NCBI GenBank assembly: GCA_964548415.1
Contig: CAZJQG010000006.1
Coordinates: 12,548-76,547, forward strand
Reading direction: 5' to 3'
DNA from: an uncultured Dehalococcoidales bacterium
GTDB lineage: Bacteria > Chloroflexota > Dehalococcoidia > GIF9 > UBA5629
DNA: 64,000 bases
Positions within the stretch are counted from its first letter, which is position 1; each line of letters opens with the position of its first letter. A program made the translations under genes and the position numbers. This document shows, in pieces, positions 42,224 to 59,073 of this stretch. The notes below the pieces were generated by a model. That model saw nothing but the letters and a program-made list of their open reading frames with translations. It ran no database searches and was not told where the DNA came from.

Positions 42224-42387
42224 ATCCCCCTTTCTGGTGAATTTTCACAGAAAGCTTCACTCTTGTCAATCGAGTGTTCTAAATGAGCGATAGAACATAG
42301 ATTCTGGTTTCATAGCTGTAGTCATCTAAACGTTTTTCTTATCAGCTACGTTCTACTATAATAGACGCCAGGTCAGAGGTCCTCCTG

Positions 42388-42930
42388 GTGTTAAGTGAAG
42401 AATATTTAGTACAGCAGGCGATAAATGGTAATCAAGCGGCATTTACGCAGCTATATAACCAGAATTTTGATAGGATACATCGATATATCTTTATCAAGGT
42501 ACGAGACCGGGCTCAGGCGGAGGATTTAACACAAGATGTATTCATCAGAGCTCTGGAGTCGATTAATACCTATAAATGGCGAGACCTGCCATTTGCGGCC
42601 TGGTTATTCAAGATCGCTCATAACAGGGTAATTGACCATGTACGTAAGCAGTCGAAAGAAAAAAGGGCCCCACTCGAGGAAGCTTATGCCAGGAGCGTGG
42701 AAGACCCGATACAGATGACAGAAAGGGATTATGAGGTATATCAATTGAAGTTGGCACTTGAACAGTTACCGGAGGCGCAACGAGATGTTGCCACCCTGCG
42801 TTTTATCGGCCAGCTGTCTATAGCGGAGGTGGCCAAGACGCTCGGTAAAAGTGAAGGTACGGTCAAGGCGTTACAGTTCAATGCCACAGCTTCATTGAGG
42901 AAAGCTCTTTACGGAAAATTTGATGTCTAG
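42388..42930 (+). CDS. ECF-type RNA polymerase sigma factor
   Basis: 180 aa with sigma-70 region 2 (DLTQDVFIRALE...WLFKIAHNRVIDHVRK) and region 4 (SIAEVAKTLGKSEGTVKALQFNA). Confidence 0.9.
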   Translation: MLSEEYLVQQAINGNQAAFTQLYNQNFDRIHRYIFIKVRDRAQAEDLTQDVFIRALESINTYKWRDLPFAAWLFKIAHNRVIDHVRKQSKEKRAPLEEAYARSVEDPIQMTERDYEVYQLKLALEQLPEAQRDVATLRFIGQLSIAEVAKTLGKSEGTVKALQFNATASLRKALYGKFDV

Positions 42931-44119
42931 AAATTTAGACGATATATTCAACGAATGTTACGAGCGGATACGCTTCGGCGAAAGCCTCGAAAGCGTCCTC
43001 CGGAGCTACCCGCAGTACCGTTCACAGTTGGAACCTCTGCTCAGAACGACCTTTGATATCGGGCGCAGGGCGTCCTTTATTCAGCCTCGTCCGGAATTCA
43101 GGCACTGGGCCAGGGTGCGCTTCGAATCGGCCATGCAGTACCCGCAGCGGCAGCAGGAGCCGGTTAGAAGGGAAACCCAGGCAGCTTCCATGTGGCTGCG
43201 GCACGGCTGGGCTGTGATTGTCAGTGCTGGTATAGTGCTCATGCTAGGTGTTGGAAGCACCATGGCCGCATCGTCACAGGCCATGCCTACGGACCCTCTC
43301 TATGCGTTAAAGCCGCTCACCGAAGATGTGCAGAGAGCCTTTGCCGTATCGCCGGACCGTAAAGCTCAATTTGAAACCGACATCGCCAATATCAGGGCGG
43401 CCGAGTTACAGGCTATGGCTGATGCCGGCAATGCCCAGGAGGCGGCCAAGGCAGCCCAGAGATATGACGACCAGTTCGAAAAGGCGGTACAGGCTATTTT
43501 AGCTACAGAAGGGACTGAGCCTATAGTTACCAGGCCCCCGGTGGCCACGCCGGTGACCACGCCAACGCCGGTTACACCGACGCCTGTGGTTACTCCACCT
43601 GTCGAGGTACCCACACCTGTAGTTACAAGTACCGATAACGGTACGGCGGGTGAAAATGCAGCTACCGAGAATACAACTCAGTCCGGAACTGCCACGCCGC
43701 CTGCTGTTCCCGTAACCTCGGAAAACACCACTCCACCGGATACTCCTGCTGTAACGACAGGTACTGGGGAGCAGCCTACCGCGGTAACCGAGGAGCAACC
43801 GGCGGTAACTGAAGAGCAGCCGGCTACAACTACCTCCGGTAGTACTCAGTCTTCCAAGGCCCAGGAGTTGAGGGACAGGCTGAACCGCCAGAAATCCACA
43901 GTCGAGCAGTCCTTAAAGGACGCCCGGGAGAAGGCATCACATCAAGATAAATCGAACTGGCAGGACACCATCGACAAAGTATCGAAGAAGACTGCCACCC
44001 GGACTACGTCAGAGCAAAGCGATAGCTCCAATCAGACCACCATTCAGACGGACAACAAGACTGTACCCAATACCGGTTCGGACAAGAACAGACCTTCCTC
44101 TTCAAATCGGCATCGCTAA
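42920..44119 (+). CDS. Putative anti-sigma factor (single TM, DUF5667-like extracytoplasmic helical domain, Pro/Thr-rich linker)
   Basis: 11-nt overlap with the sigma gene. TM helix (WAVIVSAGIVLMLGVG), helical domain, then a PVTTPTPVTPTPVVTPP low-complexity stretch. Confidence 0.6.
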   Translation: MMSRNLDDIFNECYERIRFGESLESVLRSYPQYRSQLEPLLRTTFDIGRRASFIQPRPEFRHWARVRFESAMQYPQRQQEPVRRETQAASMWLRHGWAVIVSAGIVLMLGVGSTMAASSQAMPTDPLYALKPLTEDVQRAFAVSPDRKAQFETDIANIRAAELQAMADAGNAQEAAKAAQRYDDQFEKAVQAILATEGTEPIVTRPPVATPVTTPTPVTPTPVVTPPVEVPTPVVTSTDNGTAGENAATENTTQSGTATPPAVPVTSENTTPPDTPAVTTGTGEQPTAVTEEQPAVTEEQPATTTSGSTQSSKAQELRDRLNRQKSTVEQSLKDAREKASHQDKSNWQDTIDKVSKKTATRTTSEQSDSSNQTTIQTDNKTVPNTGSDKNRPSSSNRHR

Positions 44120-44209
44120 GGATATGCCACCCGCCCAGTAGACCATCACGCCATTATCTCTATAGTGGGGATATTTTTTATCCCCTATTAAAAGTGGCTG
44201 CCAAACCCA

Positions 44210-44237
44210 TTGACAAAGGTCCATTAGCTGTTATAAT
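44210..44237 (+). promoter_or_regulatory. Promoter of paralog 1
   Basis: CCATTGACA-16 nt-TGtTATAAT (extended -10). Confidence 0.55.
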
Positions 44238-44306
44238 GCCATAAGTCCCTTTGCACACGCGCCTTTAGCGCGCGCAATAAATCCTAGAAAGGAATTAATC
44301 ACCGTC

Positions 44307-46442
44307 ATGGCAGCAAAAAGAAAACTCATAGCGCTTACAACCATAATTTTACTGACATTAATGGTAATACCTTTTTCATTGGTTAATACTGTTAGAGCCG
44401 ATTCACTTCAGTCCGACGTCTGGGTATCACCCGCTCCGCTGGGCAGTGACAGCAATCCGGGTACGAAAGCCCAGCCCTTCGCCACCATCCAGTATGGCAT
44501 CGACCATGTAGCGTCGCAAGGCACGGTGCATATCGCACCTGGCACCTATAAGGAAAACCTGATGATAACAAGCGATGTTTGGCTGGAAGGCGCCGACGCT
44601 CGTTCCACCATTGTCGATGGTGGTGGTTTAGGTACGGTAATCGTCACCGCCGCTGGAAACGAATATATAATATCCGGGCTTACCATCCAGAACGGATTGG
44701 GCTCGGTAACTACGGACGCGAATAACAATCAGTTGCCGTATGCCGGCATGAACCTGCCGTTTTCTCAGCAGTCACCGCAACAAATCCCGGTGATAGGTGC
44801 AGGCGGTGGCATTTTTATCGCTGAAGACAGCTTGGTCGACATATTTCAATGTGTCATAAAGAACAACGAGGCCTACGTTGGCGGCGGCGTCTGTAATACG
44901 GGTATTCTGTTCATGGGAGCCTGCACAGTCAGCGGCAACACCGCCTATGGTGGTGGCGCCGGCATCTTCAACGCCATACCGTTTGATGGAACCGGCGTCC
45001 GGGAAAACCAGATTGGAGGCATAGCATTTATTTTTGAATGCACTGTAAGCGGCAACACGATTCCCGCTAATACGGAGGTACCCGCTGTCGGAGCCGGCAT
45101 CCTTAACGATGGCGAGATGCTGGTATTTGACTGCACGATAGCCCACAACACAGCGGTTAATCCCGATACGTATGGCGGTGGATTCTATAATGCGATTGAA
45201 GCTTATTTTGGGGGTACGATCGTAGCCAATAATACGGCCGGTACCGGAAACAATGGTTACAATGCGGAAGGGGAGATAATTTCGGGGGGATATAACCTCG
45301 ACAGCGAGGATAGCTGCGGCTTCGATGAAGAAACTGACCTGGTAAATACTGATCCCGTACTTGGTCCGCTTCAGGACAACGGCGGACCTACTCCCACCCA
45401 TGCTCTACATCACGGCAGTCCGGCGATTGATAGCGAATCGTGCTTGCTTACCTTTTTCTTCTTTCTAGGGGCGCAGGCACAGGGACTCGTCAGCCCCGGA
45501 GAGGTTAGTGCCTTAGAGAATAAAGTAAATGAGTTCTTCCCCGAGAACACGGACCAACGCGGCGTTCCGCGACCGCAGGGCGAAGACTGCGATAGAGGTG
45601 CCTATGAGCTGGCTCAGGCTTCCGTAGCATCGGCGACAAATCAAGGAACCGTGTATTTTTCTACCGTTAACGGATACATAACCGACCTGACTGCACTGAG
45701 CGAATCGGAAACTGGATGCGGACCAAACGCTAATTTTAACTTCCCTTACGGTCTGTTCTCCTTCAACGTAACCGATATAACTCCCGGCTCCACAGCCACT
45801 ATCGTCATCATATTGCCGGGAAACGTCCCCACCGGCACGCAGTACTGGAAGTGCCTTAACGGCGGTTGGGTAAATTGCAGCTCGCTGCTGGGAAGCAATG
45901 ACGGCGATAGCGTGCTGACGTTAACCATCACCGATGGCAGTTTGGGCGACCGGGACAATTCCGCTAACGGTACCATATCCGACCCGGGAGGCCCGGTCTG
46001 GTTCGGAGCGCCGTCGGAACTCAAGGTTTCCCCGGCAATGTCGCGCCCGCTTAACGCTTCCCAGATGTCGGTTCAATACCTTAGCGTTAACCCTCGGCAG
46101 GCAGCCAATAACAGCCCCGTAACCATTTCCGCCAACGTAGTCAACACCGGCGACCAGGGTGGGAATATGAGCGTTGCTTTAAAGATTAACGGCGTGGTGG
46201 AACAGACCAGGATGGTCAGCGTCGGCCCACAGGCCTCCCAGCCGATAAAATTCACCGTATCCAGGTCTGAGCCCGGCACTTATTCCATCGATATTGGCGG
46301 CCAGACCGGCAGCTTCACCATACCTGATAAACAGACCGCAAACAACCCGCCTGTTAACTGGACCATGATTGCCTTCCTGATTATGGCTGTCCTGGCCATA
46401 GCCGTTGCCATGGTACTGATTCTTCACCGAAGGTCTGCCTGA
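44307..46442 (+). CDS. Secreted beta-helix/CARDB surface protein, paralog 1 of 5 (longest; extra inserted domain)
   Basis: Signal peptide. N-module [29 protein letters not shown]...GTVHIAPGTYKENL. PbH1-like turns (CTVSGNT). [16 protein letters not shown]...[17 protein letters not shown] module. About 170-aa insert. CARDB-like domain. TM plus HRRSA end. Confidence 0.85.
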   Translation: MAAKRKLIALTTIILLTLMVIPFSLVNTVRADSLQSDVWVSPAPLGSDSNPGTKAQPFATIQYGIDHVASQGTVHIAPGTYKENLMITSDVWLEGADARSTIVDGGGLGTVIVTAAGNEYIISGLTIQNGLGSVTTDANNNQLPYAGMNLPFSQQSPQQIPVIGAGGGIFIAEDSLVDIFQCVIKNNEAYVGGGVCNTGILFMGACTVSGNTAYGGGAGIFNAIPFDGTGVRENQIGGIAFIFECTVSGNTIPANTEVPAVGAGILNDGEMLVFDCTIAHNTAVNPDTYGGGFYNAIEAYFGGTIVANNTAGTGNNGYNAEGEIISGGYNLDSEDSCGFDEETDLVNTDPVLGPLQDNGGPTPTHALHHGSPAIDSESCLLTFFFFLGAQAQGLVSPGEVSALENKVNEFFPENTDQRGVPRPQGEDCDRGAYELAQASVASATNQGTVYFSTVNGYITDLTALSESETGCGPNANFNFPYGLFSFNVTDITPGSTATIVIILPGNVPTGTQYWKCLNGGWVNCSSLLGSNDGDSVLTLTITDGSLGDRDNSANGTISDPGGPVWFGAPSELKVSPAMSRPLNASQMSVQYLSVNPRQAANNSPVTISANVVNTGDQGGNMSVALKINGVVEQTRMVSVGPQASQPIKFTVSRSEPGTYSIDIGGQTGSFTIPDKQTANNPPVNWTMIAFLIMAVLAIAVAMVLILHRRSA

Positions 46443-46465
46443 AAAAAGCTCCACGGATGAACCGG

Positions 46466-46493
46466 AAGGGGACACGCATGGTGTCCCCTTTCT
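46466..46493 (+). terminator. Rho-independent terminator after paralog 1
   Basis: AAGGGGACAC-gcatg-GTGTCCCCTT followed by a T-rich stretch. Confidence 0.7.
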
Positions 46494-46528
46494 CGTCCCT
46501 ATATATCTGGCGGGCACGCTGCTACCCA

Positions 46529-46556
46529 TTGACAAGCTAAAGCATCCTGATATAAT
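46529..46556 (+). promoter_or_regulatory. Promoter of paralog 2
   Basis: CCATTGACAAG-...-ATCCTGaTATAAT, with a 16-nt spacer and an extended -10. Confidence 0.6.
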
Positions 46557-46620
46557 TCGTTAAGGACAATCACGGACTACCGCGTGGAAAAGCGGCAATA
46601 TACAGCTTAGGAGGTCTATC

Positions 46621-48372
46621 ATGGTCAAGGCGAATCGAATCATCTTGGTAGTAGCAGTTCTTTTGTTAGTGGCGCTTGCAATCCCGCTTTCACTATCAAA
46701 TTCTGCAGGGGCAAATAACTGCCCATCCAGCGTTTACGTGGCACCGCCGCCGTTCGGCGACGACGCCAATCCCGGCACCCAAGCTCAACCCTTCGCCACC
46801 ATCCAGCAGGGGATAGATGTAGTATGTGATGAAGGGACGGTGTACGTGGCGGCTGGTACGTACTTTGAGCATCTATCTATCAACTTCGCGGTCAACCTGG
46901 TTGGCGCCGGTGCCCCGGTCACTATTATCGATGGTGGGGCCATTGCTACCAATATCGCGATTGGCGGCTCGGTAATTACCATATCCAGCGCACCCGATGA
47001 GGTAAACGTAATCTCCGGCTTCACCATTCAGAATGGTAACGCAGTGCTCACACCCCTGAACCCCGGTACAGAGCAGGTACTTTATGCCGGAATTAAATTG
47101 CCTTCTATCCAGAGGTTGCCACAGTTGATAGACGACGGATCTGATTGCGGCGGCGGAATTTTTATATATGACACCCATATCGTAACTCTCAATGATTGTA
47201 CCATCAGAAATAATACGGCTTTCGACGGCGGAGGTATATGTAACCATGGCCAGCTGACCATGAACCGGTGCACCGTCAGCGGCAACAAAGCTTTATTCTC
47301 CGGCGGCGGCATATATAACGAAGTTGGTTTCATGCCGGATACCGGAGTTATGACGCTGACGAACTGCACTATCAGCGGAAACCAGGCCTTGGGAGCCCTA
47401 CCCCTGGGCACCGATGCGGCCCCAGAGCCGAGAATGGCCTTAGGAGGCGGCATATTTAATGGCACAAACGCCACTATGCACCTGTTGAACGTAACCATAG
47501 CTAACAATTCCGCGCTCGGTTCATCTTCCCATGGTGGCGGTTTTGCCAACGGATCTTTGCGCACCGGTTATTTTAAAAATACCATCGTGGCTAACAATGT
47601 TGCCGGCGACGGCGTCACCAATAACGGGTACGATATTGGATTCGGCACCGGGATTCACTCACTGGGCCATAACCTTGATAGCGAGAACACCTGTGGTTTC
47701 GACCAGCCTACAGATCTGATTAATACCAACCCGCTGCTCGGCCCGCTCCAGGACAACGGCGGACCCACCTTTACTTGCGCACTGCTCGAGGGCAGCCCCG
47801 CTATTGACGCAGGTGATGACGCCGGAGCTCCAGCCACCGACCAGCGCGGCGTTACCAGGCCCCAGGGCGCACACGTCGATATCGGCGCTTATGAGTTCGT
47901 ACCGGTAGTAACACCAGAAGCAGGCGGGCCCGCCCAGTTTAACGTCTCCCCTTCCAATCCTAATAACTGGACCAGAAACCTCAATCCGCCCACTATGTCA
48001 GTGGCCTTCGTCAGCGTTAATCCACAGCAGGCAGTGGCCGATCAACCGGTCACCATCTCAACTAACGTGGTCAACACCGGCGACCAGGGCGGCAACATGA
48101 GCGTCGCACTTAAGATTAACGGCATAGTGGAACAAACCAGGATGGTCAGCGTCGGTCCTCAGGCTTCCCAGCCCATTAAATTTACTGTAACCAAGGCTCA
48201 ACCGGGCACTTACGCCATAGATATCGGCGGCCAGACCGGAAGCTTCACCATACCTGATGCACAGGCTGCAAATAGGCTGTCAATTAACTGGACGATGATT
48301 ATACTTCTCATTATGGCCGTCCTGGCGATAGCCATAGTAATGGTCTTGATGCTTAACCGCCGTTCGGCTTAA
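46621..48372 (+). CDS. Secreted beta-helix/CARDB surface protein, paralog 2
   Basis: Same architecture as paralog 1: signal peptide ending ..[56 protein letters not shown] turns, [28 protein letters not shown]...[24 protein letters not shown]-like domain, TM plus NRRSA. Confidence 0.88.
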
Positions 48373-48392
48373 AATCAGCTCTGTAACAATCA

Positions 48393-48427
48393 AAAAGGGG
48401 ACTTTACACTGGAGTCCCCTTTTTTAT
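48393..48427 (+). terminator. Rho-independent terminator after paralog 2
   Basis: GGGGACT-9 nt loop-AGTCCCC followed by TTTTTTATTTTT. Confidence 0.7.
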
Positions 48428-48463
48428 TTTTCGAAAACTTCAAAATAGTTGACAGCCGGGCTA

Positions 48464-48491
48464 TTGACAAACTGACACCGGATGTTATACT
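48464..48491 (+). promoter_or_regulatory. Promoter of paralog 3
   Basis: TTGACA-16 nt-TGtTATACT. A second TTGACA lies at 48449-48454. Confidence 0.5.
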
Positions 48492-48560
48492 GGTTTCCGA
48501 CATCTATTAACTTTGCGCCTATAGGGCCGAAGGAGAAGTCCCCAAACACGGAGGTTAGCA

Positions 48561-50303
48561 ATGATTAAAGCAGGCAAAGCGTTCTCTCTCACGACAGTCC
48601 TACTATTGCTGGTACTGGCACTGGCTTTATCGCCTTCATATGTATCGGCTAATAGCTGCCAGAGCGAAGTATATGTGGCTCCGCCACCGGTGGGCAATGA
48701 CGCCAATCCCGGCACCCAAGCTCAACCCTTCGCCACCATCCAGCACGGGATAGATATGGTCTGCGACGATGGCACCGTCTTCGTGGCTAACGGAACTTAC
48801 CATGAAAATCTTGAAATCTGTAAGAGTTTGACCATGATCGGTGCCGGCGCACCGACAACCATCATTGACGGTGGAGGAATCGGACGCGTCATCCACATTG
48901 ATGGCTGTCCGGGCAATGAATCAGAGCAAGGAATTAACACCGCTGCCCAAAGCAATGTAATTTCTAACTTTACCATCCAGAACGGTCGCATAAATTGGGG
49001 ATGCTCAGGAATGCCGGTGGGAGGCGGCGTCTACGTGACCATGGGACACATTGTCACCATGAATGACTGCACCATAAAGAACAATGTGGCCGAGTTCCTG
49101 GGAGGGGGCATATACAATGCCGGGCAAATGGCGCTAAACAGGTGTACGGTGAGTGGTAACTCTGCCGGCATGGTCGGCGGCGGCATTGCTAACTTTTGGG
49201 ACGAACCGATACTGGACAGCGACGGCACCATGTCGTTGACCAACTGCACCATCTACGGGAACAATGTTTTTCAGGCAGAGCCAGCAGGCGCTGCGCCCGA
49301 ATTTGCTGTATCCCTGGCACTGGGTGGGGGTGTATACAATGGCGGCAACGCCAGCTTTTTGAATGTGACCATAGCTAACAACACTATATCCCAAATCACT
49401 GTAGACGGTAATCCCGCACCTGAAATTCTGAGTCTCCCAGTACCTCATGGTGGCGGCTTCGCCAACGTACCACTTCAGTGCGAGCAGGATAACGGACCTA
49501 TTGTTCATACGCCTGTGGCGACTTTCAAAAATACAATTGTGGCCAATAATACCCCTGAAAACGGTTATAGCAGCGGCGGAATCGTTATTTCGGAGGGCCA
49601 TAACCTTGATAGCGAGAACACCTGTGGTTTCGACCAGCCTACAGATCTGATTAATACCAACCCGCTGCTCGGCCCGCTCCAGGACAACGGCGGACCCACC
49701 TTTACTTGCGCACTGCTCGAGGGCAGCCCCGCTATTGACGCAGGTGATGACGCCGGAGCTCCAGCCACCGACCAGCGCGGCGTTACCAGGCCCCAGGGCG
49801 CACACGTCGATATCGGCGCTTATGAGTTCGTACCGGTAGTAACACCAGAAGCAGGCGGGCCCGCCCAGTTTAACGTCTCCCCTTCCAATCCTAATAACTG
49901 GACCAGAAACCTCAATCCGCCCACTATGTCAGTGGCCTTTGTCAGCGTCAATCCTCAACAGGCAGTGGCCAATCAGCCAGTTACCATCTCCACAAACGTG
50001 GTCAATACAGGCGACCAGGGCGGCAACATGAGCGTCGCCCTTAAGGTCAACGGCGTCGTAGAGCAGACCAGGATGGTCAGCGTCGGCCCTCAGGCCTCCC
50101 AGCCCATTAAATTCACCGTAGCCAGGTCCGAGCCCGGCACCTATGCCATTGATATCGGCGGCCAGACCGGCAGCTTCACCGTACCGGCGACACGGGCCAG
50201 CCGTAGCCTGCCAGTAAACTGGAACATGATTGCCTTCATCCTCATGGCATTGCTGGCGTTCGCCATCGCCATGATACTAATTTTCAACCGAAGGTCTACC
50301 TGA
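48561..50303 (+). CDS. Secreted beta-helix/CARDB surface protein, paralog 3
   Basis: Same architecture as paralog 2. 345 nt are identical to paralog 2 and the 3' part is near-identical to paralog 4. Ends NRRST. Confidence 0.88.
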
Positions 50304-50324
50304 AATTATCTAGACAGCCAGTCA

Positions 50325-50356
50325 AAGGGGGGCAAGTAGTACCCCCCTTTTCTTTT
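50325..50356 (+). terminator. Rho-independent terminator after paralog 3
   Basis: AAGGGGGG-9 nt loop-CCCCCCTT followed by TTCTTTTCT. Confidence 0.7.
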
Positions 50357-50386
50357 CTCCAGATTCAGCCTGACTGCGCCCTGCCA

Positions 50387-50414
50387 TTGACAAGACTAAC
50401 TATCCTGATATAAT
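50387..50414 (+). promoter_or_regulatory. Promoter of paralog 4
   Basis: CCATTGACAAG-...-ATCCTGaTATAATTCGTTA, nearly identical to the paralog 2 promoter. Confidence 0.6.
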
Positions 50415-50486
50415 TCGTTACGGATACTATTGGGTTCAATGAAGGGACAGCCTCTACGAGAGTGAGGCGCAACTTAGGAGGTCACT

Positions 50487-52217
50487 ATGGTTAAGACTGT
50501 CAAAGCATGTTCGGTGGTGGTAGTCATGTTGCTGGCAGTTCTGGGGGTGTTTCTTGCACCAGCGCACGTTGTCGGAAATGCGTGCTCTGCAGATGTCTGG
50601 GTGGCTCCCCCGCCATTTGGTAATGATGCCAATCCCGGCGCTCAAACCCAGCCTTTCGCTACCATCCAGAAAGGTATCGATACGGTATGCTGGAATGGCA
50701 CTGTACACGTAGCTGCCGGCACTTACCATGAGAGCCTGCATATTTACGATTCACAGAATTTGTTGGGCGCCGGAGCCCCGACGACAATTATCGAGGGAAA
50801 TGGTGGCACAGTTATCAAAATCATAAGCGCACCTAATTCTACAAACAACATCTCCGGTTTCACCATAAAAAATGGTAACCTAGTATCGAGCTTCTGGGAC
50901 CCGGCTGCAGAACGAGTCCTTTATGCCGGTGTCAAATTACCATCCATAGAGCGGTTACCGCAACTATTCGACATTAGCTACCTCTACGGTGGCGGCATAG
51001 AAATCGGCGATACACATATCGTCACCATCAACGACTGCGTTATCAAGGACAACGAAGCTTCTTATGGTGGCGGTGTCTACAACGAAGGACAGCTTTACAT
51101 GAACCGATGTACCGTGAGCAACAACCGTGTTCAGTTTGATGGAGGCGGCATTCATAATTATTATGCTGGCGTTTATGCCGATAGCGGCAGGATGTGGCTG
51201 ACCAACTGTACAATAAGCAATAACAGCTGTACCACGAACAATTTCGGTAGCCTTGGGAAAGAATTTGCATTTGCCCGAATCTGCTATGCCACAGCTGTAC
51301 TTCAAGGTGGCGGTATTTTCAGTAACGGCACCATGGAGCTGCTTAACTGTACTATCACCAACAACTCGGCTGAAGACTACGGCGGAGGATTTGTCAATAG
51401 CTCACCGGATACAGCCATATTCAAAAACACAATAGTGGCTAATAACACTGCCGGTGACACCAGCACCAACAATTGTTCCAATAGGCCGGGGGCTGTAATC
51501 ACCTCTCTGGGTCATAACCTGGACAGCGAGAATACCTGCCATTTCAACCAGCCTACCGATCTGATAAATACCAACCCGCTTCTCGGCCCACTTCGTGACA
51601 ACGGCGGCCCCACGTTTACCTGCGCACTGCTCGTCGGCAGCCCAGCCATTGACGCCGGCGACGACAGCGGCGCACCGGCCACCGACCAGCGCGGCGTCAG
51701 CAGGCCCCAGGGCGCACACGTCGACATCGGCGCTTTCGAATTGGTCCTTGTAGAAACCCCTGAACTAGGCGGGCCCGCTCACCCGAACGTTTCCCCGCCC
51801 TCTACTAATAACTGGACGCGAAACCTGAGCCCGGCCACGATGTCAGTGGCCTTTGTCAGCGTCAATCCTCAACAGGCAGTGGCCAATCAGCCAGTTACCA
51901 TCTCCACAAACGTGGTCAATACCGGCGACCAGGGCGGCAACATGACCGTCGCCCTTAAGGTCAACGGCGTCGTAGAGCAGACCAGGATGGTCAGCGTGGG
52001 CCCTCAGGCCTCCCAGCCGATTAAATTCACCGTGGCCAGGTCACAACCCGGCACTTATGCAATCGATATCGGCGGCCAGACAGGCAGCTTCATCATACCC
52101 GGTAGCCAGAGCAACCAGGCCGCTCCTATGAATACAGGCATGATTATCTTGCTGGTTATAGCAGTCCTGGCAGTTGCTGTTGTAATGGCCCTGCTGCTAA
52201 GCCGCCGCTCGGCTTAA
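50487..52217 (+). CDS. Secreted beta-helix/CARDB surface protein, paralog 4
   Basis: Same architecture as the other paralogs. Ends SRRSA. Confidence 0.88.
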
Positions 52218-52241
52218 GATCGAATAAACCGCAAGAAAACA

Positions 52242-52272
52242 GGGGGGCGCCGGTCGCGCCCCCTTCCTTTTT
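52242..52272 (+). terminator. Rho-independent terminator after paralog 4
   Basis: GGGGGCGC-cggtc-GCGCCCCC followed by TTCCTTTTT. Confidence 0.7.
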
Positions 52273-52309
52273 CCACATATGGCTCCGATATTCCATTGCA
52301 GGCAATCCA

Positions 52310-52337
52310 TTGACAAGTCAGGCTATCCTGATATAAT
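52310..52337 (+). promoter_or_regulatory. Promoter of paralog 5
   Basis: CCATTGACAAG-...-ATCCTGaTATAAT with a 16-nt spacer. Confidence 0.6.
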
Positions 52338-52411
52338 GGCCTGGAACAATTCTAAACCCAATTCGTAGCCTACGGGAAAGGAGGCTGATTCTTTAGCTCA
52401 GGAGGTCGGTT

Positions 52412-53992
52412 ATGGTTAGAACAGGTAAAATTGTCTCGATTTTCGCGATTCTGTTAGTGGTAGTGCTGGCGGTGTCTGCGGCGCCGGCAAACGTGTCAGG
52501 CACTTGCGACACCGATGTATGGGTGGCTCCGCCGCCACTGGGCAACGACGCCAATCCAGGAACTCAGTCACAGCCTTTTGAGCATATCCAGACAGGTATC
52601 AATAACGTATGCACAGATGGCACGGTACATGTGGCCGCAGGTACCTACCATGAAAACCTTTTCATATCTGGTGCCACGAACCTAACCGGTGCCGGCGCCC
52701 ACAATACAATCATTGACGGAGGCAGCACCGGCACAGTTATCAACATCTCCAGCGGACCCGTCACAAACATGATTTCCGGGTTTACAATCCAGAATGGCGC
52801 CCCCTTTGGCTCGTATCCCGGTGGTGGTATTTATACAGATGGAATGCATATCGTCACCCTTAACGACTGCGTCATCAAGGACAACCAAGCCGATTACGGC
52901 GGCGGCATATATAACCTGGGTCAGCTTTACATGAACCGATGTACCGTCAGCGGTAACTCGGCTGTTTACGGTGGCGGTGGCATATACAACACCCCGGGCG
53001 GAATTGGAGACAGCGGACAGGCATGGCTGGACAACTGCACCATCAGCGGCAACAAGGTGACCGAATTCGACTTCAGCGGCGGAGGCGGTATTTATAACTA
53101 TAACGGCACTATAGAACTGCTCAATTGTACCATCGCCTACAATTCCACGAGCAGCTTTAGCGGTACAGTTGGTGGTGGATTCTATAACTATTCCAGTGAT
53201 ACTATGTACTTTAAAAACACCATAGTGGCAAATAACACCGCTGGCAACGACCTATACAACAACGGTCACTCCTCACCGGCGGAAGCGACCGTATCTCAGG
53301 GCTACAATCTGGACAGCGAGAACAGCTGTGGCTTCGACCAGCCCACTGACAAGATTAACACCGACCCTCTGCTCGGTCCGCTCCAAGATAACGGCGGCCC
53401 TACCTTCACCCATGCACTGATGCACGGCAGCCCAGCCATAGACAACGGCGGAGACCCGGGCATTACTGACCAGCGCGGCGTACCAAGACCACAGGGGCCG
53501 GCCTTCGACATCGGCGCCTACGAACTGGAACAGGCCGAAGTAGCCCCACCTGTAGGAACTCAAATCAATGTGTCACCCACCAATCCCAACAACTGGACAC
53601 GCCTGAACCCGCCCACCATGTCGGTGGCCTTTGTCAGCGTTAACCCCCAGCAGGCCGTGGCCAATCAACCCGTCACCATCTCGACCAACGTGGTCAACAC
53701 CGGCGACCAGGGGGGTAACATGAGCGTCGCGCTCAAGATCAACGGGCAGGTGGCCGAGACCAGAATGGTAAGCGTGGGACCTCAAACTTCCCAGCCCATT
53801 AAATTCACCGTAACCAGAGCCCAGCCGGGAACGTACGCCATAGATATCGGCGGCCAGACCGGCAGCTTCACAATACCCGATAACCGTTCGGCATCTGCTC
53901 CGATGAACAGGAACGTGGTCATTCTTATCGCTATTGGAGTGCTGGCATTCATCTCGGCCATGATATTTATACTCAGCCGGCGCCCGGCATAA
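52412..53992 (+). CDS. Secreted beta-helix/CARDB surface protein, paralog 5 (shortest)
   Basis: Same architecture as the other paralogs. Ends SRRPA. Confidence 0.88.
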
Positions 53993-54014
53993 GCTGAATC
54001 GCTAACGCTAGATA

Positions 54015-54045
54015 AAGGGAGCATCGTCGATGCTCCCTTTTTTTG
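54015..54045 (+). terminator. Rho-independent terminator after paralog 5
   Basis: GGGAGCAT-cgtcg-ATGCTCCC followed by TTTTTTTG. Confidence 0.7.
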
Positions 54046-54260
54046 ATGTCTGCCAGGTACTTTGGTACAGCAGTATACTTTAGTACACACAGTTTTCGTC
54101 GAGCCCGGCCTGAAGCTGCCGTGAGCCTGAAATACTCCTTTTTCTACGTGTAAACCTGCATTTTTCGCTATAAACCTTTGTCTATCCCCTCCGTTATTTA
54201 TAAGCACAGAACGGAAATTTTAATCCGTTCCGTAATCCACTAAAGGAGGGTTTAAAAAAG

Positions 54261-56132
54261 ATGAACAAGTGGATCATGCCGGTGATGATAGCCATCGTCG
54301 CCCTGCTGATGCCGGTATCAACGGCAAGTGTCAGCGCCCAGGACGGAACTGGTCTGAGCATCAGCAAATCGGCCGCGCCGACTGTGGCTGCAGTAGGTGA
54401 TACCATCACGTACACCTACGCCATCACCAACACCGACAACGTCACTATTAGCGGCATCAACCTGCAGGACGATTTACTGGGGGCAATCGACCTGGGCGGC
54501 CAGACCAGCCTTGATGCCGGCGGTACTATCACCGCTGCGGCAACCTACACCGTAGTCGCGGCAGACTTACCGGGCCCGCTGGTGAATACGGCGACCGTCT
54601 CCGGCGCCGACCCGGACGGTAACGCCGTCACTGCCAGTACTTCAGCCACTGTCGAATTAAGCTATACCGCTTCGTTACAGCTAACGAAGGTCGCCCAACC
54701 GGCCACGGCCGCAGTTGGCGATAGCATCGATTATACCTTTACCATCGCCAACAACGGACCGGTGACCGTCTCCGACATCACCCTGACGGACGACCAACTC
54801 GGCACCATCGACCTGGGCGGACAGACCAGCCTGACTGCAGACGGAACGATCACGGCGACAGCAACCTATACCGTTGTAGAAGCTGACCTGCCGGGGCCGA
54901 TTACCAACACTGCTACGGTTTCCGGCACCGACCCTGACGGCAACCCGGTTAGCATCAGTGCTACCGCCACGGTTGGGCTTAACTACGAAGCTTTGCTTCA
55001 GCTCAATAAGGTCGCCCAGCCGGCCTCGGCGACCGTAGGTGACAACATTAGTTACACTTACACCATTACCAATAACGGGCCGGTCACTATAAGCGGCATC
55101 GCCTTACAGGACGACTTACTGGGAGCCATAGATCTCGGCGGACTGACCAGCCTTAATGCCGGTGCCAGTGCCTCCGCTTCGGCAACGTATACTGTAGTAG
55201 AAGCCGACCTGCCGGGTCCTATCGTCAATACTGCTACCGTTTCCGGCACCGACCCCAACGGCAACTCAATCACTGCCAGTGCCACAGCTACTGTAGAACT
55301 GACCGGCAACGCCTCCCTTGAGGTTATCAAAAGCGCCGACAGAGATACGGCCTCGCCACGGCAGACCATAAATTACTCTTATACGGTTGCCAATAATGGA
55401 AACATAACCATAAACGATCTGTCGCTTAGCGATGATAAGCTGGGGGCTCTTTCGTTGAGCGCGAATACGCTGGCTCCCGGCGAGAGCGCTACTGCAACTG
55501 CCAACTACGCGGTCACTATAGCTGACTTACCCGGTCCTATCGTGAACACGGCCACTGCAGAAGGCACTGGTTCGGATGGTCAGTCTATTTCAGCTACCAG
55601 TTCCCAGGTCTCCGTCTCCCTGTCCGTGAACAGATGGGAACTGTTCAAAGCCGAGATACTGAAATTGATGGGAGTGCCCGGTAAAGGTATCGACCACGCT
55701 CCAGGCCTTCAAAAACCTTTCAACCCGAAATCTCAGGCCGCCGAGCATGCCGGCCCAAAGAACACCTCACAGCAGCCTGACTCCGATGAGCCCGAACAAT
55801 TTCAAATAAACCAGAATGAAGACAACGAGGGTGCAGAGGAGCAGCTTCAGATAAGACAGGAGACACAGAACCAGGGCACCGGCAGGCAGCTTCAGCTAAG
55901 AGAAGAGACACAGAACCAGGGCACCGGGGAGCAACTGCAGGTGACCAACGAGGTACAAAATCAGTCTGAGAATGGCCCGGTTATACATAATAATGACGAA
56001 GACAACACTGGAAAGGGCCAGCTAAATAACAACGGAGACACAGATAACCAAACCGGCGGACAGGTAAATCCGGGCAACGGCCACCAATCGGACAAGGACA
56101 AAAAGAATAACAAGTCCCAGTCGGGGAGATAG
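54261..56132 (+). CDS. DUF11-type 'conserved repeat domain' surface protein with Gln/Asn/Glu-rich C-terminal tail
   Basis: Signal peptide, then five units of about 95 aa (..K.A.PA.A.VGD.I.YTYTITN.G.VTIS.I.L.DD.LG.IDLGG...PGPI.NTATVSGTDPDGN..). The tail is a low-complexity Q/N/E/G stretch with no C-terminal TM. Confidence 0.85.
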   Translation: MNKWIMPVMIAIVALLMPVSTASVSAQDGTGLSISKSAAPTVAAVGDTITYTYAITNTDNVTISGINLQDDLLGAIDLGGQTSLDAGGTITAAATYTVVAADLPGPLVNTATVSGADPDGNAVTASTSATVELSYTASLQLTKVAQPATAAVGDSIDYTFTIANNGPVTVSDITLTDDQLGTIDLGGQTSLTADGTITATATYTVVEADLPGPITNTATVSGTDPDGNPVSISATATVGLNYEALLQLNKVAQPASATVGDNISYTYTITNNGPVTISGIALQDDLLGAIDLGGLTSLNAGASASASATYTVVEADLPGPIVNTATVSGTDPNGNSITASATATVELTGNASLEVIKSADRDTASPRQTINYSYTVANNGNITINDLSLSDDKLGALSLSANTLAPGESATATANYAVTIADLPGPIVNTATAEGTGSDGQSISATSSQVSVSLSVNRWELFKAEILKLMGVPGKGIDHAPGLQKPFNPKSQAAEHAGPKNTSQQPDSDEPEQFQINQNEDNEGAEEQLQIRQETQNQGTGRQLQLREETQNQGTGEQLQVTNEVQNQSENGPVIHNNDEDNTGKGQLNNNGDTDNQTGGQVNPGNGHQSDKDKKNNKSQSGR

Positions 56133-56154
56133 CTAACTGGAATTAGCTTCGTTA

Positions 56155-56190
56155 AAGAGGGCGGCCAATGGGCCGCCCTCTACTTTTTGT
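56155..56190. terminator. Bidirectional terminator between convergent genes
   Basis: GAGGGCGGCC-aatg-GGCCGCCCTC flanked by an A-run and a T-run. Confidence 0.7.
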
Positions 56191-56211
56191 CCGTTATAGT
56201 GGATCGTTTTA

Positions 56212-57930
56212 CTATTTTCTATTTTTAGTGTGCAGGTATTCCTCGTATTCCACCATTTTGATCAGCACCCTGGCGGCATGCCTGCCCGAGGGATAAGCAT
56301 AATGGGTACCCTCAAGGCGAGGCTGGTCCGAAGTGAAAAAGGTAGTAGTCAGCACCGGCTTCTTATAGCTGGCCACCCACTGCTCGGCCATCGCCACCAG
56401 AAAATGCGCGGAGGCCTGGTCAGGGGTCGGCACTTCCTTTATGCCCACTTCGGCCAGAGCCGCAGAGCCGGGCGGCAGAAAGGCGCTGATAAGGTATGGA
56501 ATTCTGAGGCGGCCGGAGACGATGGCGGCGGCGATTATCTCTGTCACATCGTTCACATCTTCATCCTGATAAATGCCCATTCTCGAAGCCATCAACGAAA
56601 CGACAGGACGCACCGTATTGCCTATTTTTACGGTATCTTTGGCCAGCAAGGCCGCCGTGAACTCCTGGGCTATAGCATGAAAGACTTCGCGATTGGACAG
56701 CCAGGGAGCTTGCTCCCCGGATTCTCTGGAAACAAATAGCGATGTATAAATCGAAAAGCCGCTGAAACCCATAAAAATCAAAGAATCGATCTCGTCCACC
56801 TTTAGCAGCTTTCCTGGAGCCGTAAGATACGTAAGTAAGTTCCTGTCACCAGCCGGGTCGACGGGGTTGCCGTGGCTCCACCGTGGTGGAAACACCTTAT
56901 TCAGAGCAGCGATTACCCGGTCCGGCAGTTTGACTACATCCAGTCCCTCGGTGGCACAGGCTTCGGCGCAGAGAATGCCGTAGCTGCCGCCGGGAGTCAG
57001 TATGGCCACGTTTCTGCCTTTAGGCAGCGGCTGGGTTAAAAATCCGATGGCTACGTCCAGCAGCTCTTCCGGGCTTTCCACACGGACAGCACCGATTTCC
57101 TTAAACGCAGCTTCATAAGCCTCATCCGAGCCGGCCAGCGCTCCTGAATGCGAGGTGATGGCCTTAGCAGCCGCGTCCGTTTTGCCGGGCTTTAGCACGA
57201 TGACCGGCTTGGTCTGCGTGACTTTCTCTACCTTTTCCATGAACCGTCGACCGTCTACCAGGCCTTCGATATAAGCCAGTATCACCTTGACCTCGGGGTC
57301 CTGCCCGAAATATTCGATATAGTCCTCAATCTGTATATCCGCAGCGCACCCGCAACTTACGTAGCGATGGAAGCCCACTCCCCGCATAAATCCGGAAGTA
57401 ACAACTGCACCGCCGACATTTCCGCCTTGAGAAACAAAAGCCAGCGGTCCGTCCTTAACCGGCAGTGGAAACATAAATCCCCTTAAATCGGAAGAAGCGC
57501 TCCAGTAGCCCATGCAGTTGGGGCCGATAAAGTGGATATTGCCTCTGCGGGCGATGCTCAGCACCTCGTCCTGCAGCTTCTTGCCTTCTTTTCCGATTTC
57601 GGCAAAGCCGGCTGAAATAATAACTGCCGCCTTAACACCTTTGGCCACGCAATCCTCCATCACCGAAGCCACTACGGTGGAGGGGACGACGACAATGACC
57701 ATGTCGACCGGGTCCGGTATGTTGCTGACACGGGCATAAGCCTTATGCCCCAGGACTTCGCTTTCTCTGTTATTCACCGGATACACCGGCCCCTTGAAGC
57801 CATTAAGCGCGCTGGTAAATGAAGAATACCCCCACTTATTCCAGTTGCTGGTGGCGCCCACGACGGCCACGGACCTGGGATTGAATAAGGAGTCCAGCTC
57901 TTCGACTATATTTTGAACCATCAATGTCAC
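56212..57930 (-). CDS. CoA-binding acyl-CoA synthetase (ADP-forming, alpha-type) family protein
   Basis: N-terminal CoA-binding Rossmann fold (PRSVAVVGATSN..WGY) and succinyl-CoA-ligase-like flavodoxin domains (VSQGGNVG, SHSGALAG). No ATP-grasp part is evident. Confidence 0.75.
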   Translation of the reverse strand: MTLMVQNIVEELDSLFNPRSVAVVGATSNWNKWGYSSFTSALNGFKGPVYPVNNRESEVLGHKAYARVSNIPDPVDMVIVVVPSTVVASVMEDCVAKGVKAAVIISAGFAEIGKEGKKLQDEVLSIARRGNIHFIGPNCMGYWSASSDLRGFMFPLPVKDGPLAFVSQGGNVGGAVVTSGFMRGVGFHRYVSCGCAADIQIEDYIEYFGQDPEVKVILAYIEGLVDGRRFMEKVEKVTQTKPVIVLKPGKTDAAAKAITSHSGALAGSDEAYEAAFKEIGAVRVESPEELLDVAIGFLTQPLPKGRNVAILTPGGSYGILCAEACATEGLDVVKLPDRVIAALNKVFPPRWSHGNPVDPAGDRNLLTYLTAPGKLLKVDEIDSLIFMGFSGFSIYTSLFVSRESGEQAPWLSNREVFHAIAQEFTAALLAKDTVKIGNTVRPVVSLMASRMGIYQDEDVNDVTEIIAAAIVSGRLRIPYLISAFLPPGSAALAEVGIKEVPTPDQASAHFLVAMAEQWVASYKKPVLTTTFFTSDQPRLEGTHYAYPSGRHAARVLIKMVEYEEYLHTKNRK

Positions 57931-58088
57931 CTCTCTGGTATACTTATGGACGAAATCGACCGGGTTGATTACGGAGTTCGGCCGACATCCGAATATTATA
58001 ACAGATTCGTGAGGTCCGAATGATTCTTATGTAATACATTCCCGGCTTGTCCGTATATTATTCAGAGATACTGATAAAAGGAGGCTTA

Positions 58089-58982: not shown

Positions 58983-58991
58983 AACCAGAAC

Positions 58992-59046: not shown

Positions 59047-59073
59047 TTTCCGGCAAATTAAAAAAGGGGAAAT

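Follow-up and report, generated by a model that had tools for sequence, protein, structure and literature searches.

Beta-helix surface-protein array and sigma factor-CLIPPER genes in a Dehalococcoidia envelope locus: evidence for two interleaved units

A 13.7-kb region (42388-56132) of the 64-kb stretch of DNA analysed here (the window) contains eight ORFs, every one on the + strand. Our best explanation is that these genes make up two interleaved units: Unit A, a constitutive array of genes for beta-helix coat proteins, and Unit B, an ECF sigma/anti-sigma pair together with a sigma-controlled gene for a CLIPPER (DUF11) protein. We put the probability of this reading as a whole at roughly 0.55. 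The eight-ORF layout agrees exactly, in coordinates and lengths, with that listed in an earlier note on this DNA. The same note did not recognize a described system, and our literature search found no published description of one. At the domain level this was overstated, as the choice-of-anchor Q and U domains are already named in NCBIfam and a 2025 study characterized DUF11 as the CLIPPER isopeptide domain (PMC12617251). We view the region as a lineage-specific envelope locus of an uncultivated Dehalococcoidia bacterium, assembled from domains already catalogued.

Promoter motifs

ECF-type motifs were identified as consensus matches to TAAAC-N16/17-CGTT. One (TAAAC-N17-CGTT; 42327-42352, +) lies before the sigma gene, predicting autoregulation, and was found in 9/9 loci examined, including the distant L012, L092 and L094; a conserved TATAAT (42357-42362) is located 3' of it. 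Another (TAAAC-N16-CGTT; 54171-54195, +) lies before the CLIPPER gene and was seen in all eight loci that reach this gene, among them L012 and L013, where the CLIPPER proteins share only 44-49% identity. The window contains four matches versus 0.94 expected, and these are two of them. Each related locus with both sigma and CLIPPER genes has the motif at exactly those two sites.

No ECF-type motif was found 5' of any of the five paralogs (p1-p5). Instead, each is preceded by a consensus match to an extended -10 sigma-70 promoter. The pattern TTGACA-N13-TGnTAWAMT occurs five times in 64 kb, once 5' of each paralog (0.01 expected by chance), and it also precedes 7/7 paralogs of related loci L001, L004, L005 and L009. 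The p1 promoter (44210-44237; TTGACA-16-TGnTATAAT) matches at 12/12 positions and that of p3 (48464-48491) at 11/12, with the TG present; p2 (46529-46556), p4 (50387-50414) and p5 (52310-52337) have consensus promoters, all on the + strand. A strong Shine-Dalgarno sequence is found at each paralog, and directly 3' of every one is a GC hairpin followed by a T-run, a predicted terminator (p1, 46468-46488, hairpin-T; p2, 48392-48424; p3, 50327-50347; p4, 52241-52265; p5, 54014-54040). Insofar as each gene has its own predicted promoter and terminator, these data bear out the suggestion that the paralogs are individually expressed, and the five are probably expressed both separately and strongly.

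The sigma/anti-sigma pair had been thought to belong with the array. The distribution of promoters, with the ECF-type motif only before the sigma and CLIPPER genes and sigma-70 consensus promoters before the paralogs, argues against this. So does the distant relative L012 (sigma 62% identical), in which sigma, anti-sigma and CLIPPER genes are contiguous, with no beta-helix gene between them; both motifs are kept, and the beta-helix gene is 8 kb off. From motif conservation we infer that the ECF sigma appears to control the neighbouring CLIPPER gene, and it does not appear to drive the beta-helix array.

Proteins of the array

The array comprises p1 (44307-46442, +; 711 aa), a long-type surface protein; p2 (46621-48372, +; 583 aa), p3 (48561-50303, +; 580 aa) and p4 (50487-52217, +; 576 aa), which are short-type; and p5 (52412-53992, +; 526 aa), the shortest. 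No sixth copy was detected by tblastn within the 64-kb window. An AF2 model of p2 (pLDDT 79) contains a beta-helix (residues 37-390), a disordered linker (430-452), an Ig domain (459-544) and a TM helix (557-578). The beta-helix is capped N-terminally by a DUF1565-type module and C-terminally by choice-of-anchor Q, and the TM helix is followed by an RR(S/P)A tail. By Pfam, CARDB is borderline (18.7-24.1 bits versus a cut-off of 22.7); by Foldseek, the p2 model matches the PF1109 CARDB domain with a TM-score of 0.65-0.70 on the target. The earlier assignment of a beta-helix, a CARDB-like Ig domain and a C-terminal TM helix is thus borne out by model and structural match, and the general picture of exported beta-helix proteins, anchored at the C terminus and variable in the centre between conserved ends, is supported. 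The name choice-of-anchor Q had been given correctly, as NF041518 matched all five paralogs at 76-104 bits (cut-off 25). The CARDB-plus-TM module also forms the C-terminal end of many different proteins, 173-1312 aa in size.

A five-part plan common to all paralogs had been proposed; p1 departs from it in three ways. In p1, the order is signal peptide, beta-helix, choice-of-anchor Q, choice-of-anchor U, CARDB-like domain and TM helix. The U domain (NF041766, 103 bits) is extra, the Q module is split by a 30-aa insertion private to p1, and both conserved cysteines are missing. The first of these cysteines, just after the signal peptide, co-occurs with a second ~35 residues on: both are present in 35/44 sequences, neither in 8/44 and the first only in 1/44. 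This pattern points to a disulfide and not to a lipobox. The centres had also been described as rich in N-x-S/T sequons. This applies weakly to p2-p5, where sequons reach 1.5-2 times shuffle expectation, with much of the excess due to the N-C-T contained in the repeat motif, and not to p1, which is not enriched.

Sigma, anti-sigma and CLIPPER proteins

The first gene (42388-42930, +; 180 aa) encodes an ECF (group IV) sigma factor, with matches to Sigma70_r2, Sigma70_r4 and Sigma70_ECF. The nearest family is BldN: TIGR02952 is the best NCBIfam model, and its score of 162 bits falls under the equivalog cut-off of 206. The best PDB match is 6dxo_A (1.4e-28), which we take to be the RsbN-BldN entry. 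The anti-sigma gene (42920-44119, +; 399 aa) overlaps the sigma gene and probably begins with the ATG at 42923. A single hydrophobic span and a match to DUF5667 (54.8 bits, cut-off 27) in the extracytoplasmic part confirm the expectation of an overlapping single-TM anti-sigma with a Pro/Thr-rich ectodomain, the Pro/Thr-rich stretch forming a linker. Similarity of this protein to solved chains in the PDB was not detected. Its homologs come from Chloroflexota only, and in the loci examined the sigma gene always precedes the anti-sigma gene. In two more distant relatives, L092 and L094, neither CLIPPER nor beta-helix genes adjoin the pair; the targets of the sigma may be different or more numerous.

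The CLIPPER/CLIPPER_2 (DUF11/DUF7507) gene (54261-56132, +; terminator 56156-56181) encodes a secreted protein of 623 aa, comprising a signal peptide, four Ig repeats, a conserved ~40-aa motif and a low-complexity, polar tail; it lacks a TM anchor. Five DUF11 repeats had been counted previously; DUF7507, DUF11 and TIGR01451 each match four stretches, and the domain calls are strong (249 bits). Candidate isopeptide lysines (K36, K143, K250, K357) recur with a 107-aa period, and a candidate K...DD...N triad can be read from the sequence in each of the four repeats. The AF2 model of repeat 4 (pLDDT 89) matches 9IFR with a TM-score of 0.59 on the target and 21% identity. The ~40-aa motif, encoded at about 55635-55760, matches no Pfam or NCBIfam model. 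A stem-loop (54207-54230, +) of nine pairs, four with compensatory changes among only six sequences, lies close to the 5' end of the CLIPPER 5'UTR.

Recombination and copy number

A 345-nt tract is 100% identical between p2 (47664-48008) and p3 (49595-49939), both +, as expected of a gene-conversion tract. p3 is a mosaic, equal to p2 over this tract and, over 49926-50128, matching p4 at 97.5% identity. The CARDB-like stalks are closest to others of the same genome, at 97-100% identity in L004 and L005 and 87-93% in the window. These data bear out the earlier suggestion of recombination between paralogs, which, as judged from these sequence comparisons, is real and goes with concerted evolution. 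The helix centres find their best matches across genomes (p5-L004_b, 73%; p3-L009_b, 66%; p2-L011_b, 64%), that of p5 being most like L004_b and L001_a, which suggests that the centres are old lineages common to several genomes and not products of recent shuffling. In the family alignment, variable, indel-rich segments fall on low-confidence helix loops of the AF2 model. Copy number varies between genomes, in keeping with the earlier reading: related genomes have one or two beta-helix copies, compared to at least five in the window.

Proposed explanation and alternatives

In the explanation that we favour, Unit A consists of at least five monocistronic genes in tandem, whose products are type-I membrane proteins: a Sec signal peptide is followed by a right-handed beta-helix, which a flexible linker joins to a CARDB-like Ig stalk, and then by a TM helix with the RR(S/P)A tail. 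All copies would be made constitutively and abundantly, and together they would form much of the protein coat, or adhesive surface, on the outside of the cell. Diversity would lie in the helix loops, with gene conversion keeping stalk and anchor alike within a genome. In Unit B, an envelope signal would free the BldN-like ECF sigma from the DUF5667 membrane anti-sigma; the freed sigma would transcribe the operon that encodes it as well as the CLIPPER gene 3' of the array, and the CLIPPER protein, with its conserved docking-like motif, may modify or reinforce the coat. A coat or adhesin is the best inference for the putative role of the array proteins, and an S-layer role is plausible. For Dehalococcoides mccartyi, an unrelated beta-propeller has been reported as the S-layer protein (bioRxiv 10.1101/2024.05.28.596244), and therefore the coat here may be of other material.

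An unlikely alternative, which still carries some weight, is a Pmp-like adhesin repertoire, with each helix binding a ligand of its own, be it a mineral, a polymer or a partner cell, on a stalk of Ig domain and TM helix, and no continuous coat. GGG[IVF]xN and (C/N)T(I/V)xxN repeats occur in p2-p5 (about four per protein), some homologs match Chlam_PMP (PF02415), the beta-helix protein RbtA is a cell-surface protein, fibrillar adhesins are the typical home of CLIPPER domains, and variation is concentrated in loops. However, consensus promoters on all copies suit a bulk structural role at least equally, and this alternative overlaps our best explanation, not being exclusive of a coat.

We consider it improbable that the ECF sigma/anti-sigma pair controls the whole array as a regulon, with the paralogs serving as a surface-variation repertoire through recombination and differential expression. 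Sigma, anti-sigma, array and DUF11 genes are indeed neighbours, both in the window and in four other, distinct related loci, genes are mosaic with variable centres, and copy number ranges from 1 to 5. Yet, besides the promoter evidence and the age of helix centres common across genomes, no switching machinery was found, and the array has no invertible repeats, simple-sequence (slippage) tracts or silent cassettes. All five copies are complete and have predicted promoters. Moreover, contigs of six other metagenome samples tile 36621-49713 and 49813-62217 and are 99.975-100% identical to the window. These data argue against the surface-variation reading of the earlier note.

Still less probable are cell-anchored enzymes, with pectate-lyase-like helices acting on extracellular polysaccharides or polymers and paralogs differing in substrate. 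Lyases and hydrolases are often beta-helical, and there are weak matches to DUF1565, Beta_helix, Pel9A-like and NosD models, but no catalytic family matched at or above its cut-off. Among the 50 Foldseek matches listed, those to the beta-helix are RbtA and a phage tail-fibre protein (9rkv), none is a lyase, and the others, GH3 glycosidases included, align to the Ig domain only; the caps and GGG/N turns, and not a groove, contain the invariant residues.

Finally, an array made by mis-joined or expanded repeats in a short-read MAG is very unlikely: independent contigs do all break in the 345-nt identical tract of p3, with L003 stopping at 49713 and L095 beginning at 49813, so that 49714-49812 is backed by the window contig alone, but the paralogs are just 56-67% identical in protein, the six-sample contigs cover both flanks, and related genomes share this layout, with their one or two copies, leaving a copy undercount at this tract as the only realistic assembly error.

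Comparison with known systems

The two-unit explanation can be set beside several known systems. Chlamydial Pmp proteins likewise belong to a family of multiple paralogs, are exported to the surface and have a right-handed beta-helix with repeated GG(A/G)(I/L/V/F)xN-type turns, and the homologs that score on PF02415 strengthen the likeness; none of the window paralogs matched Chlam_PMP at E <= 0.01. In contrast to Pmps, there is no autotransporter barrel here, a single TM helix together with an Ig stalk provides the anchor, a choice-of-anchor Q module forms the cap and the host lies outside the chlamydiae, in the class Dehalococcoidia.

The best structural match to the p2 helix is rhombotarget A (RbtA) of Acinetobacter baumannii (PDB 9CDV/9CDU; Foldseek E 5e-8, ~445 aligned columns), and p2 matches TIGR04212 weakly. 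However, identity is 14-15% and the TM-score only 0.38-0.49, and the GlyGly-CTERM signal of RbtA (per the TIGR04212 name, GlyGly_RbtA) is absent from the window paralogs. We take this to be a rhombosortase signal. RbtA combines a beta-helix passenger with a lineage-specific C-terminal anchor (PMC12643943); the match transfers no function, because that paper gives none for RbtA.

Fibrillar adhesins with CLIPPER/CLIPPER_2 domains (PMC12617251; PDB 9IFR) resemble the CLIPPER protein in its four strong repeats, each with K...DD...N. Unlike them, the proteins here are short (1-4 repeats), with no recognisable adhesive head or anchor, and have the ~40-aa motif and polar tail at the end and a predicted ECF promoter.

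In Streptomyces, sigma-BldN and RsbN, an ECF sigma and a single-pass anti-sigma, direct secreted surface proteins, the chaplins and rodlins of the surface sheath (PMC6101532); an analogous arrangement is predicted here, and BldN is the best NCBIfam model of the sigma. The differences are the sub-equivalog score (162 versus 206 bits), the DUF5667 anti-sigma and the predicted target, a CLIPPER protein here and an amyloid-forming chaplin in Streptomyces.

TM-anchored S-layer proteins (C. glutamicum PS2 and archaeal examples) are encoded by one dominant gene, compared to five co-encoded divergent paralogs here. S-layer genes are linked with strong promoters. Like S-layer proteins of this kind, the array proteins have a wall-distal passenger on an Ig-type stalk, with a TM anchor at the C terminus, and the sigma-70 consensus promoters suit the very high abundance expected of S-layer proteins.

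Gene layout and domain plan of the paralogs

All eight ORFs of the locus (42388–56132) lie on the + strand, with coordinates and lengths exactly as claimed: an ECF sigma gene (sigma, 42388–42930), the overlapping anti-sigma gene (42920–44119), five tandem beta-helix paralogs (p1–p5, "the array", 44307–53992; 711, 583, 580, 576 and 526 aa), and a DUF11/DUF7507 gene 3' of the array (CLIPPER, 54261–56132, 623 aa). No sixth copy was found in the 64-kb window by tblastn. The domain name choice-of-anchor Q, which the earlier note gave, is correct, as p1–p5 all score above the NF041518 cut-off of 25 bits (p1, 75.7 bits in two pieces; p2–p5, 93–104 bits). Scores against Pfam CARDB (PF07705) were 18.7–24.1 bits versus a gathering threshold of 22.7, with p5 alone above it. 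A single five-part plan, proposed for all five paralogs, applies to p2–p5, which are 56–67% identical to one another in a full-length alignment. p1 is a distinct long type, with ∼44% identity to p2–p5 over the helix and a choice-of-anchor U domain (NF041766; 103 bits, cut-off 32; aa 474–564) that p2–p5 lack. Homologs with a named source come from MAGs of Dehalococcoidia, Dehalococcoidales or 'Chloroflexi RBG_13'.

p1 also carries a hydrophobic, in-frame insertion of 30 aa, SCLLTFFFFLGAQAQGLVSPGEVSALENKVNEFFPEN, in its Q module (45440–45545, aa ∼378–414). The insertion is private, being missing from the long-type orthologs of related loci (L004_a, L005_a/b and L001_a), and it may disturb the Q cap.

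An AF2 model of p2 (44-sequence alignment, pLDDT 79) predicts a signal helix (residues 2–20), a right-handed beta-helix (∼37–390), a disordered linker (430–452), a beta-sandwich (459–544) and a TM helix (557–578). By Foldseek, the sandwich resembles the CARDB domain of PF1109 (TM-score 0.65–0.70 on target). The C-terminus (TM/RRSA tail) matched none of the NCBIfam sorting-signal models, and no match to a catalytic family backs an enzyme reading of the array helix.

The conserved Cys noted after the signal peptide co-occurs with a second Cys in the N-cap, and p1 is without both. Across 44 sequences, 35 have both residues, eight have neither and one has the first alone. This co-occurrence, together with the missing lipobox, led us to reject a lipoprotein reading and indicates a probable disulfide in the N-cap rather than lipidation. 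The sequon richness remarked on earlier proved to be a weak enrichment, 1.5–2 times the shuffle expectation, and we discarded an N-glycosylation signal because much of the excess is accounted for by the N-C-T of the repeat.

Independent contigs support the array

Could the array be an assembly artefact? Matching contigs come from six other metagenome samples, ENA ERZ27245470, ERZ27245614 and ERZ27247969 and JGI 3300022556, 3300025145 and 3300013129. One (L003) is 100% identical to the window over 36621–49713, four (L095 to L098) are 100% identical, beginning at 49813–50009 and extending up to 62217, and another (L010) is 99.975% identical to 51563–59600. The array is therefore real, with independent support on either side of 49714–49812, the sole stretch resting on the window contig alone. 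Since these short-read contigs of the strain break in a 345-nt tract shared by p2 and p3 (49595–49939; L003 ends at 49713, L095 to L098 start at 49813–50009), five is strictly a minimum copy number. No structural variation was seen in the population sampled by these metagenomes.

Two classes of predicted promoter

Each of p1–p5 is preceded by a GC hairpin and T-run, then TTGACA-16-TGnTATAAT and, last, a strong Shine-Dalgarno sequence. Across the 64-kb window the strict pattern TTGACA-N13-TGnTAWAMT has five matches, versus 0.01 expected, one before each paralog; it also precedes 7/7 paralogs of the related loci L001, L004, L005 and L009. The sigma and CLIPPER genes lack this array-type sigma-70 promoter. 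Upstream alignments from four genomes show TAAAC-N16/17-CGTT conserved before both, a predicted −35 AAC/−10 CGT pair of the classical ECF type. The window has four matches to this motif, versus 0.94 expected, two of which are the sigma and CLIPPER sites. The others, at 24725 (− strand, near an NfeD gene) and 27278 (before DNA ligase), we treated as chance, given the expected number and the absence of the motif from the syntenic ligase-region loci L004 and L005. Related loci with both genes each have the ECF motif at precisely these two sites and at no others. Upstream of DUF4349 it is absent in the window, L004, L005, L009 and L094, and L092 has one weaker match there (CAAAC..CGTC). These data argue against assigning the sigma/anti-sigma pair to the array, as the earlier note implied: the ECF motif sits at the sigma and CLIPPER genes, the predicted sigma-70 promoters at the paralogs.

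Two further elements lie close to the ECF sites. At the sigma promoter, the ECF −10 CGTT is followed 4 nt downstream by a TATAAT (42357–42362) that is perfectly conserved in 9/9 loci, which hints at an overlapping housekeeping −10 keeping sigma expressed at a basal level. The CLIPPER gene has a stem-loop (54207–54230) immediately 3' of its predicted ECF −10, found at the same place in L001, L004, L005, L009 and L011. Four of its nine pairs show compensatory changes among six sequences, and it may stabilise the 5' end of the mRNA or act as an operator. Scans of the window for Rfam families and tRNAs gave no matches.

The sigma/anti-sigma pair and its genomic context

Identification of sigma as an ECF factor stands. 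Sigma70_r2, Sigma70_r4 and Sigma70_ECF were all found, TIGR02937 scored 102 bits (cut-off 42.9), and the features of the ECF (group IV) class are present, namely sigma2 and sigma4 domains only, a length of ∼180 aa and an overlapping anti-sigma gene. The anti-sigma is likewise as described, overlapping the sigma gene and having one hydrophobic span and a Pro/Thr-rich ectodomain; residues 121–195 match DUF5667 (PF18915) at 54.8 bits (cut-off 27). A PDB sequence search with the anti-sigma or the CLIPPER protein returned no match. The DNA encoding the ectodomain has short repeats in tandem, with units of 12 and 21 nt (43538–43563 and 43781–43831), and the homologous region of L094 (8834–9560) has long (∼90 nt) tandem repeats and a truncated gene call. 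Anti-sigma linker length seems to vary between lineages.

The order sigma, DUF5667 anti-sigma, beta-helix gene(s), CLIPPER recurs in four further distinct loci (L001, L004, L005 and L009; L006 is a near-duplicate of L005 and was counted with it), with one or two beta-helix genes compared to five in the window. In L004, L005 and L009, CLIPPER is followed by a convergent CoA ligase gene and DUF4349. L011 is a fragment of the same order (the 3' end of a paralog, a second paralog, CLIPPER, CoA ligase), and both promoter types precede the expected genes. L012 is a more distant case (sigma 62% identical). Its sigma and anti-sigma genes form a contiguous block with CLIPPER, and it has both ECF motifs; its sole beta-helix gene, of 1137 aa, is 8 kb off, beyond an FAD-oxidase/CCG cluster. 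In L092 and L094, which are more distant still (anti-sigma 39% identical), sigma/anti-sigma lie in the same backbone, followed directly by DUF4349, and the autoregulatory ECF motif is retained. A profile search of genome contigs with the five-paralog alignment gave two loci only, the patterns chosen being too specific, and a metagenome contig search, which returned mostly distant beta-helix+Q relatives without the anchor, was of use only for L012–L015 and L027.

These locus orders suggest that the sigma/anti-sigma pair is part of a conserved backbone, that CLIPPER is the most consistent predicted target of sigma, and that the beta-helix array is a separately promoted (predicted sigma-70) insertion between them. 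Because DUF4349 directly follows sigma/anti-sigma in the distant relatives, the array together with CLIPPER and the gene for the ADP-forming CoA ligase appears to behave as an insert. In the backbone the genes run DNA ligase, Pth, enolase, QueF, GAPDH. The window flanks (27331–42223 and 56212–58982) are syntenic, with DNA ligase, Pth, then sigma/anti-sigma and DUF4349; in related loci, Pth is separated from the sigma gene by enolase, a metallo-beta-lactamase-fold gene, QueF and GAPDH. Elsewhere in the window (6260–9406, − strand) is an unrelated gene for a 1048-aa hybrid histidine kinase with at least five PAS domains, HisKA/HATPase and a receiver domain.

Homogenised anchors and divergent passengers

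Recombination among the paralogs, as proposed, is evident from a sliding-window comparison, which shows mosaicism. Nucleotides 47664–48008 of p2 and 49595–49939 of p3 are 100% identical over 345 nt, with ∼55% identity immediately upstream, and 49926–50128 of p3 is 97.5% identical to p4. In L005, protein identity between the two paralogs (9078–9830 and 11297–12049) is 100% from the U domain through to the stop, a conversion tract much longer than that of p2/p3.

We calculated identities module by module for 13 genes from six genomes. Within genomes, the CARDB-like stalk is 97–100% identical in L004 and L005, 91% in L009 and 87–93% in the window; across genomes, it is 61–72% identical (window versus L004 and L005). 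In L004, L005 and L009 the TM segment follows a similar pattern. Helix centres are 45–59% identical within the window, and the best matches across genomes are at 73% (p5–L004_b), 66% (p3–L009_b) and 64% (p2–L011_b). Stalk and anchor thus bear the signature of concerted evolution. As stalks are alike within a genome and helix centres across genomes, the passengers are old lineages, differentially kept or lost, with anchors homogenised inside each genome. Variable, indel-rich blocks of the 44-sequence alignment (residues 101–120, 141–180, 221–240, 261–280 and 301–320) largely coincide with low-pLDDT loops of the helix. The CARDB+TM module is matched by 157 clusters at 50% identity (E ≤ 1e-30), lies C-terminally in proteins of 173–1312 aa, and is a generic anchor of the lineage.

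The earlier reading of the array as a system of surface variation fared poorly, there being no sign of switching. A predicted promoter stands before every copy, silent promoterless cassettes are absent among the array copies, and no invertible repeats or slippage (simple-sequence) tracts were found flanking the promoters.

The CLIPPER protein

Four DUF11 repeats were counted, rather than the five claimed. DUF7507 (PF24346; 249 bits) and DUF11 (PF01345; 84 bits) each match four stretches, above cut-offs. In 2025 DUF11 was renamed CLIPPER and DUF7507 CLIPPER_2, and both were shown to be isopeptide domains of a CnaA-like kind that typify the stalks of adhesins (PMC12617251). Lys, DD and Asn at matching positions in 4/4 repeats form a candidate isopeptide triad, and an AF2 model of repeat 4 (pLDDT 89) matches 9IFR (TM-score 0.59 on target, 21% identity) among other E-set folds.

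The repeats are followed by a ∼40-aa motif, (K/T)AEILKLxGVPGKGIxxAPGLQKPFNPKSQAAEHAG (window ∼55635–55760), conserved in all five full-length orthologs compared (AF2 pLDDT ∼81–89) and matched by no Pfam or NCBIfam model. Small secreted proteins of Dehalococcoidia that have no CLIPPER domain (P0249, P0262, P0264 and P0252) carry it as well, two or three times in tandem. The family with this motif has about 160 members at E ≤ 0.001, and those with a named source are from Dehalococcoidia or Chloroflexi. The 120 members listed are of 135–337 aa, and the window protein (623 aa) is the longest encountered. The tail of the CLIPPER gene (55841–55927) holds a 45-nt tandem repeat (1.9 copies, 92% matches) encoding EEQLQIRQETQNQGTG units.

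Proposed working and significance

The analysis establishes how genes and domains are laid out, where the two classes of motif lie, that these are conserved across genomes, and that stalk and anchor evolve in concert; on this footing we propose how the locus might work. The paralogs would be made constitutively and in abundance, pass out through Sec and stay anchored in the membrane through the C-terminal helix, and the Ig stalk would raise diverse beta-helices outward as a coat or adhesive surface. The DUF5667 ectodomain would sense an envelope signal and release sigma, which would boost its own operon and the CLIPPER gene, whose secreted product might then dock on the surface via the ∼40-aa motif. 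In the fullest form of this reading, the beta-helix/Ig-stalk/TM proteins would be the principal S-layer-like coat of a large uncultivated Dehalococcoidia lineage, heteromeric and built from divergent paralogs, with stalks kept compatible by gene conversion and with on-demand remodelling by ECF-sigma-controlled, isopeptide-stabilised CLIPPER docking via the KAEILK..GVPGKGI..APGLQKPFNPKSQAAEHAG motif. We put the chance that this fullest form is correct at roughly one in five.

The locus reveals no new mechanism or new fold. The claim of an undescribed system fails for the domains, which are already catalogued, and holds for the cassette, the predicted regulon and the candidate docking motif, which are absent from the literature we found. 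Literature searches on DUF5667, on polymorphic outer-membrane proteins in dehalococcoids, and on CARDB with beta-helix in Chloroflexi returned no papers, and we found no published report of a regulon for this sigma group. Sediments and aquifers harbour Dehalococcoidia in abundance and, to our knowledge, almost nothing is known of the envelope of the uncultivated lineages. The locus provides concrete candidates for their exposed surface, which are likely phage receptors, adhesion factors and metaproteomic markers, and offers an ECF sigma/promoter/target triplet open to testing. It is also a clean natural case of modular evolution, the anchor apparently homogenised by gene conversion and the passengers anciently divergent.

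Comparison with known systems

The array helix has repeat motifs like those of chlamydial Pmp proteins and, as they do, belongs to a paralog family. However, the array proteins lack the autotransporter beta-barrel and end in an Ig domain and one TM helix; p1–p5 have no match to Chlam_PMP (PF02415) at E ≤ 0.01, although some homologs do carry it. The best structural match of the p2 helix is RbtA, but p2 has no GlyGly-CTERM signal, and the RbtA equivalog model (TIGR04212, cut-off 295 bits) gave 15.8 bits for p2 only, so the paralogs do not qualify as rhombosortase targets. RbtA is a cell-surface protein to which its paper assigns no function (PMC12643943). S-layer proteins with a TM anchor exist, and the S-layer protein of D. 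mccartyi is a beta-propeller (bioRxiv 10.1101/2024.05.28.596244). For a possible S-layer role of the paralogs the signals are indirect, namely their consensus promoters and TM anchor.

For sigma, the best-scoring NCBIfam model is the BldN family (TIGR02952), at 162 bits, under the equivalog cut-off of 206.45. The closest solved relative is 6dxo_A, which we take to be the RsbN–BldN entry. By analogy, sigma-BldN with RsbN is probably the nearest functional counterpart of the sigma/anti-sigma pair. That system drives the chaplin and rodlin sheath genes (PMC6101532).
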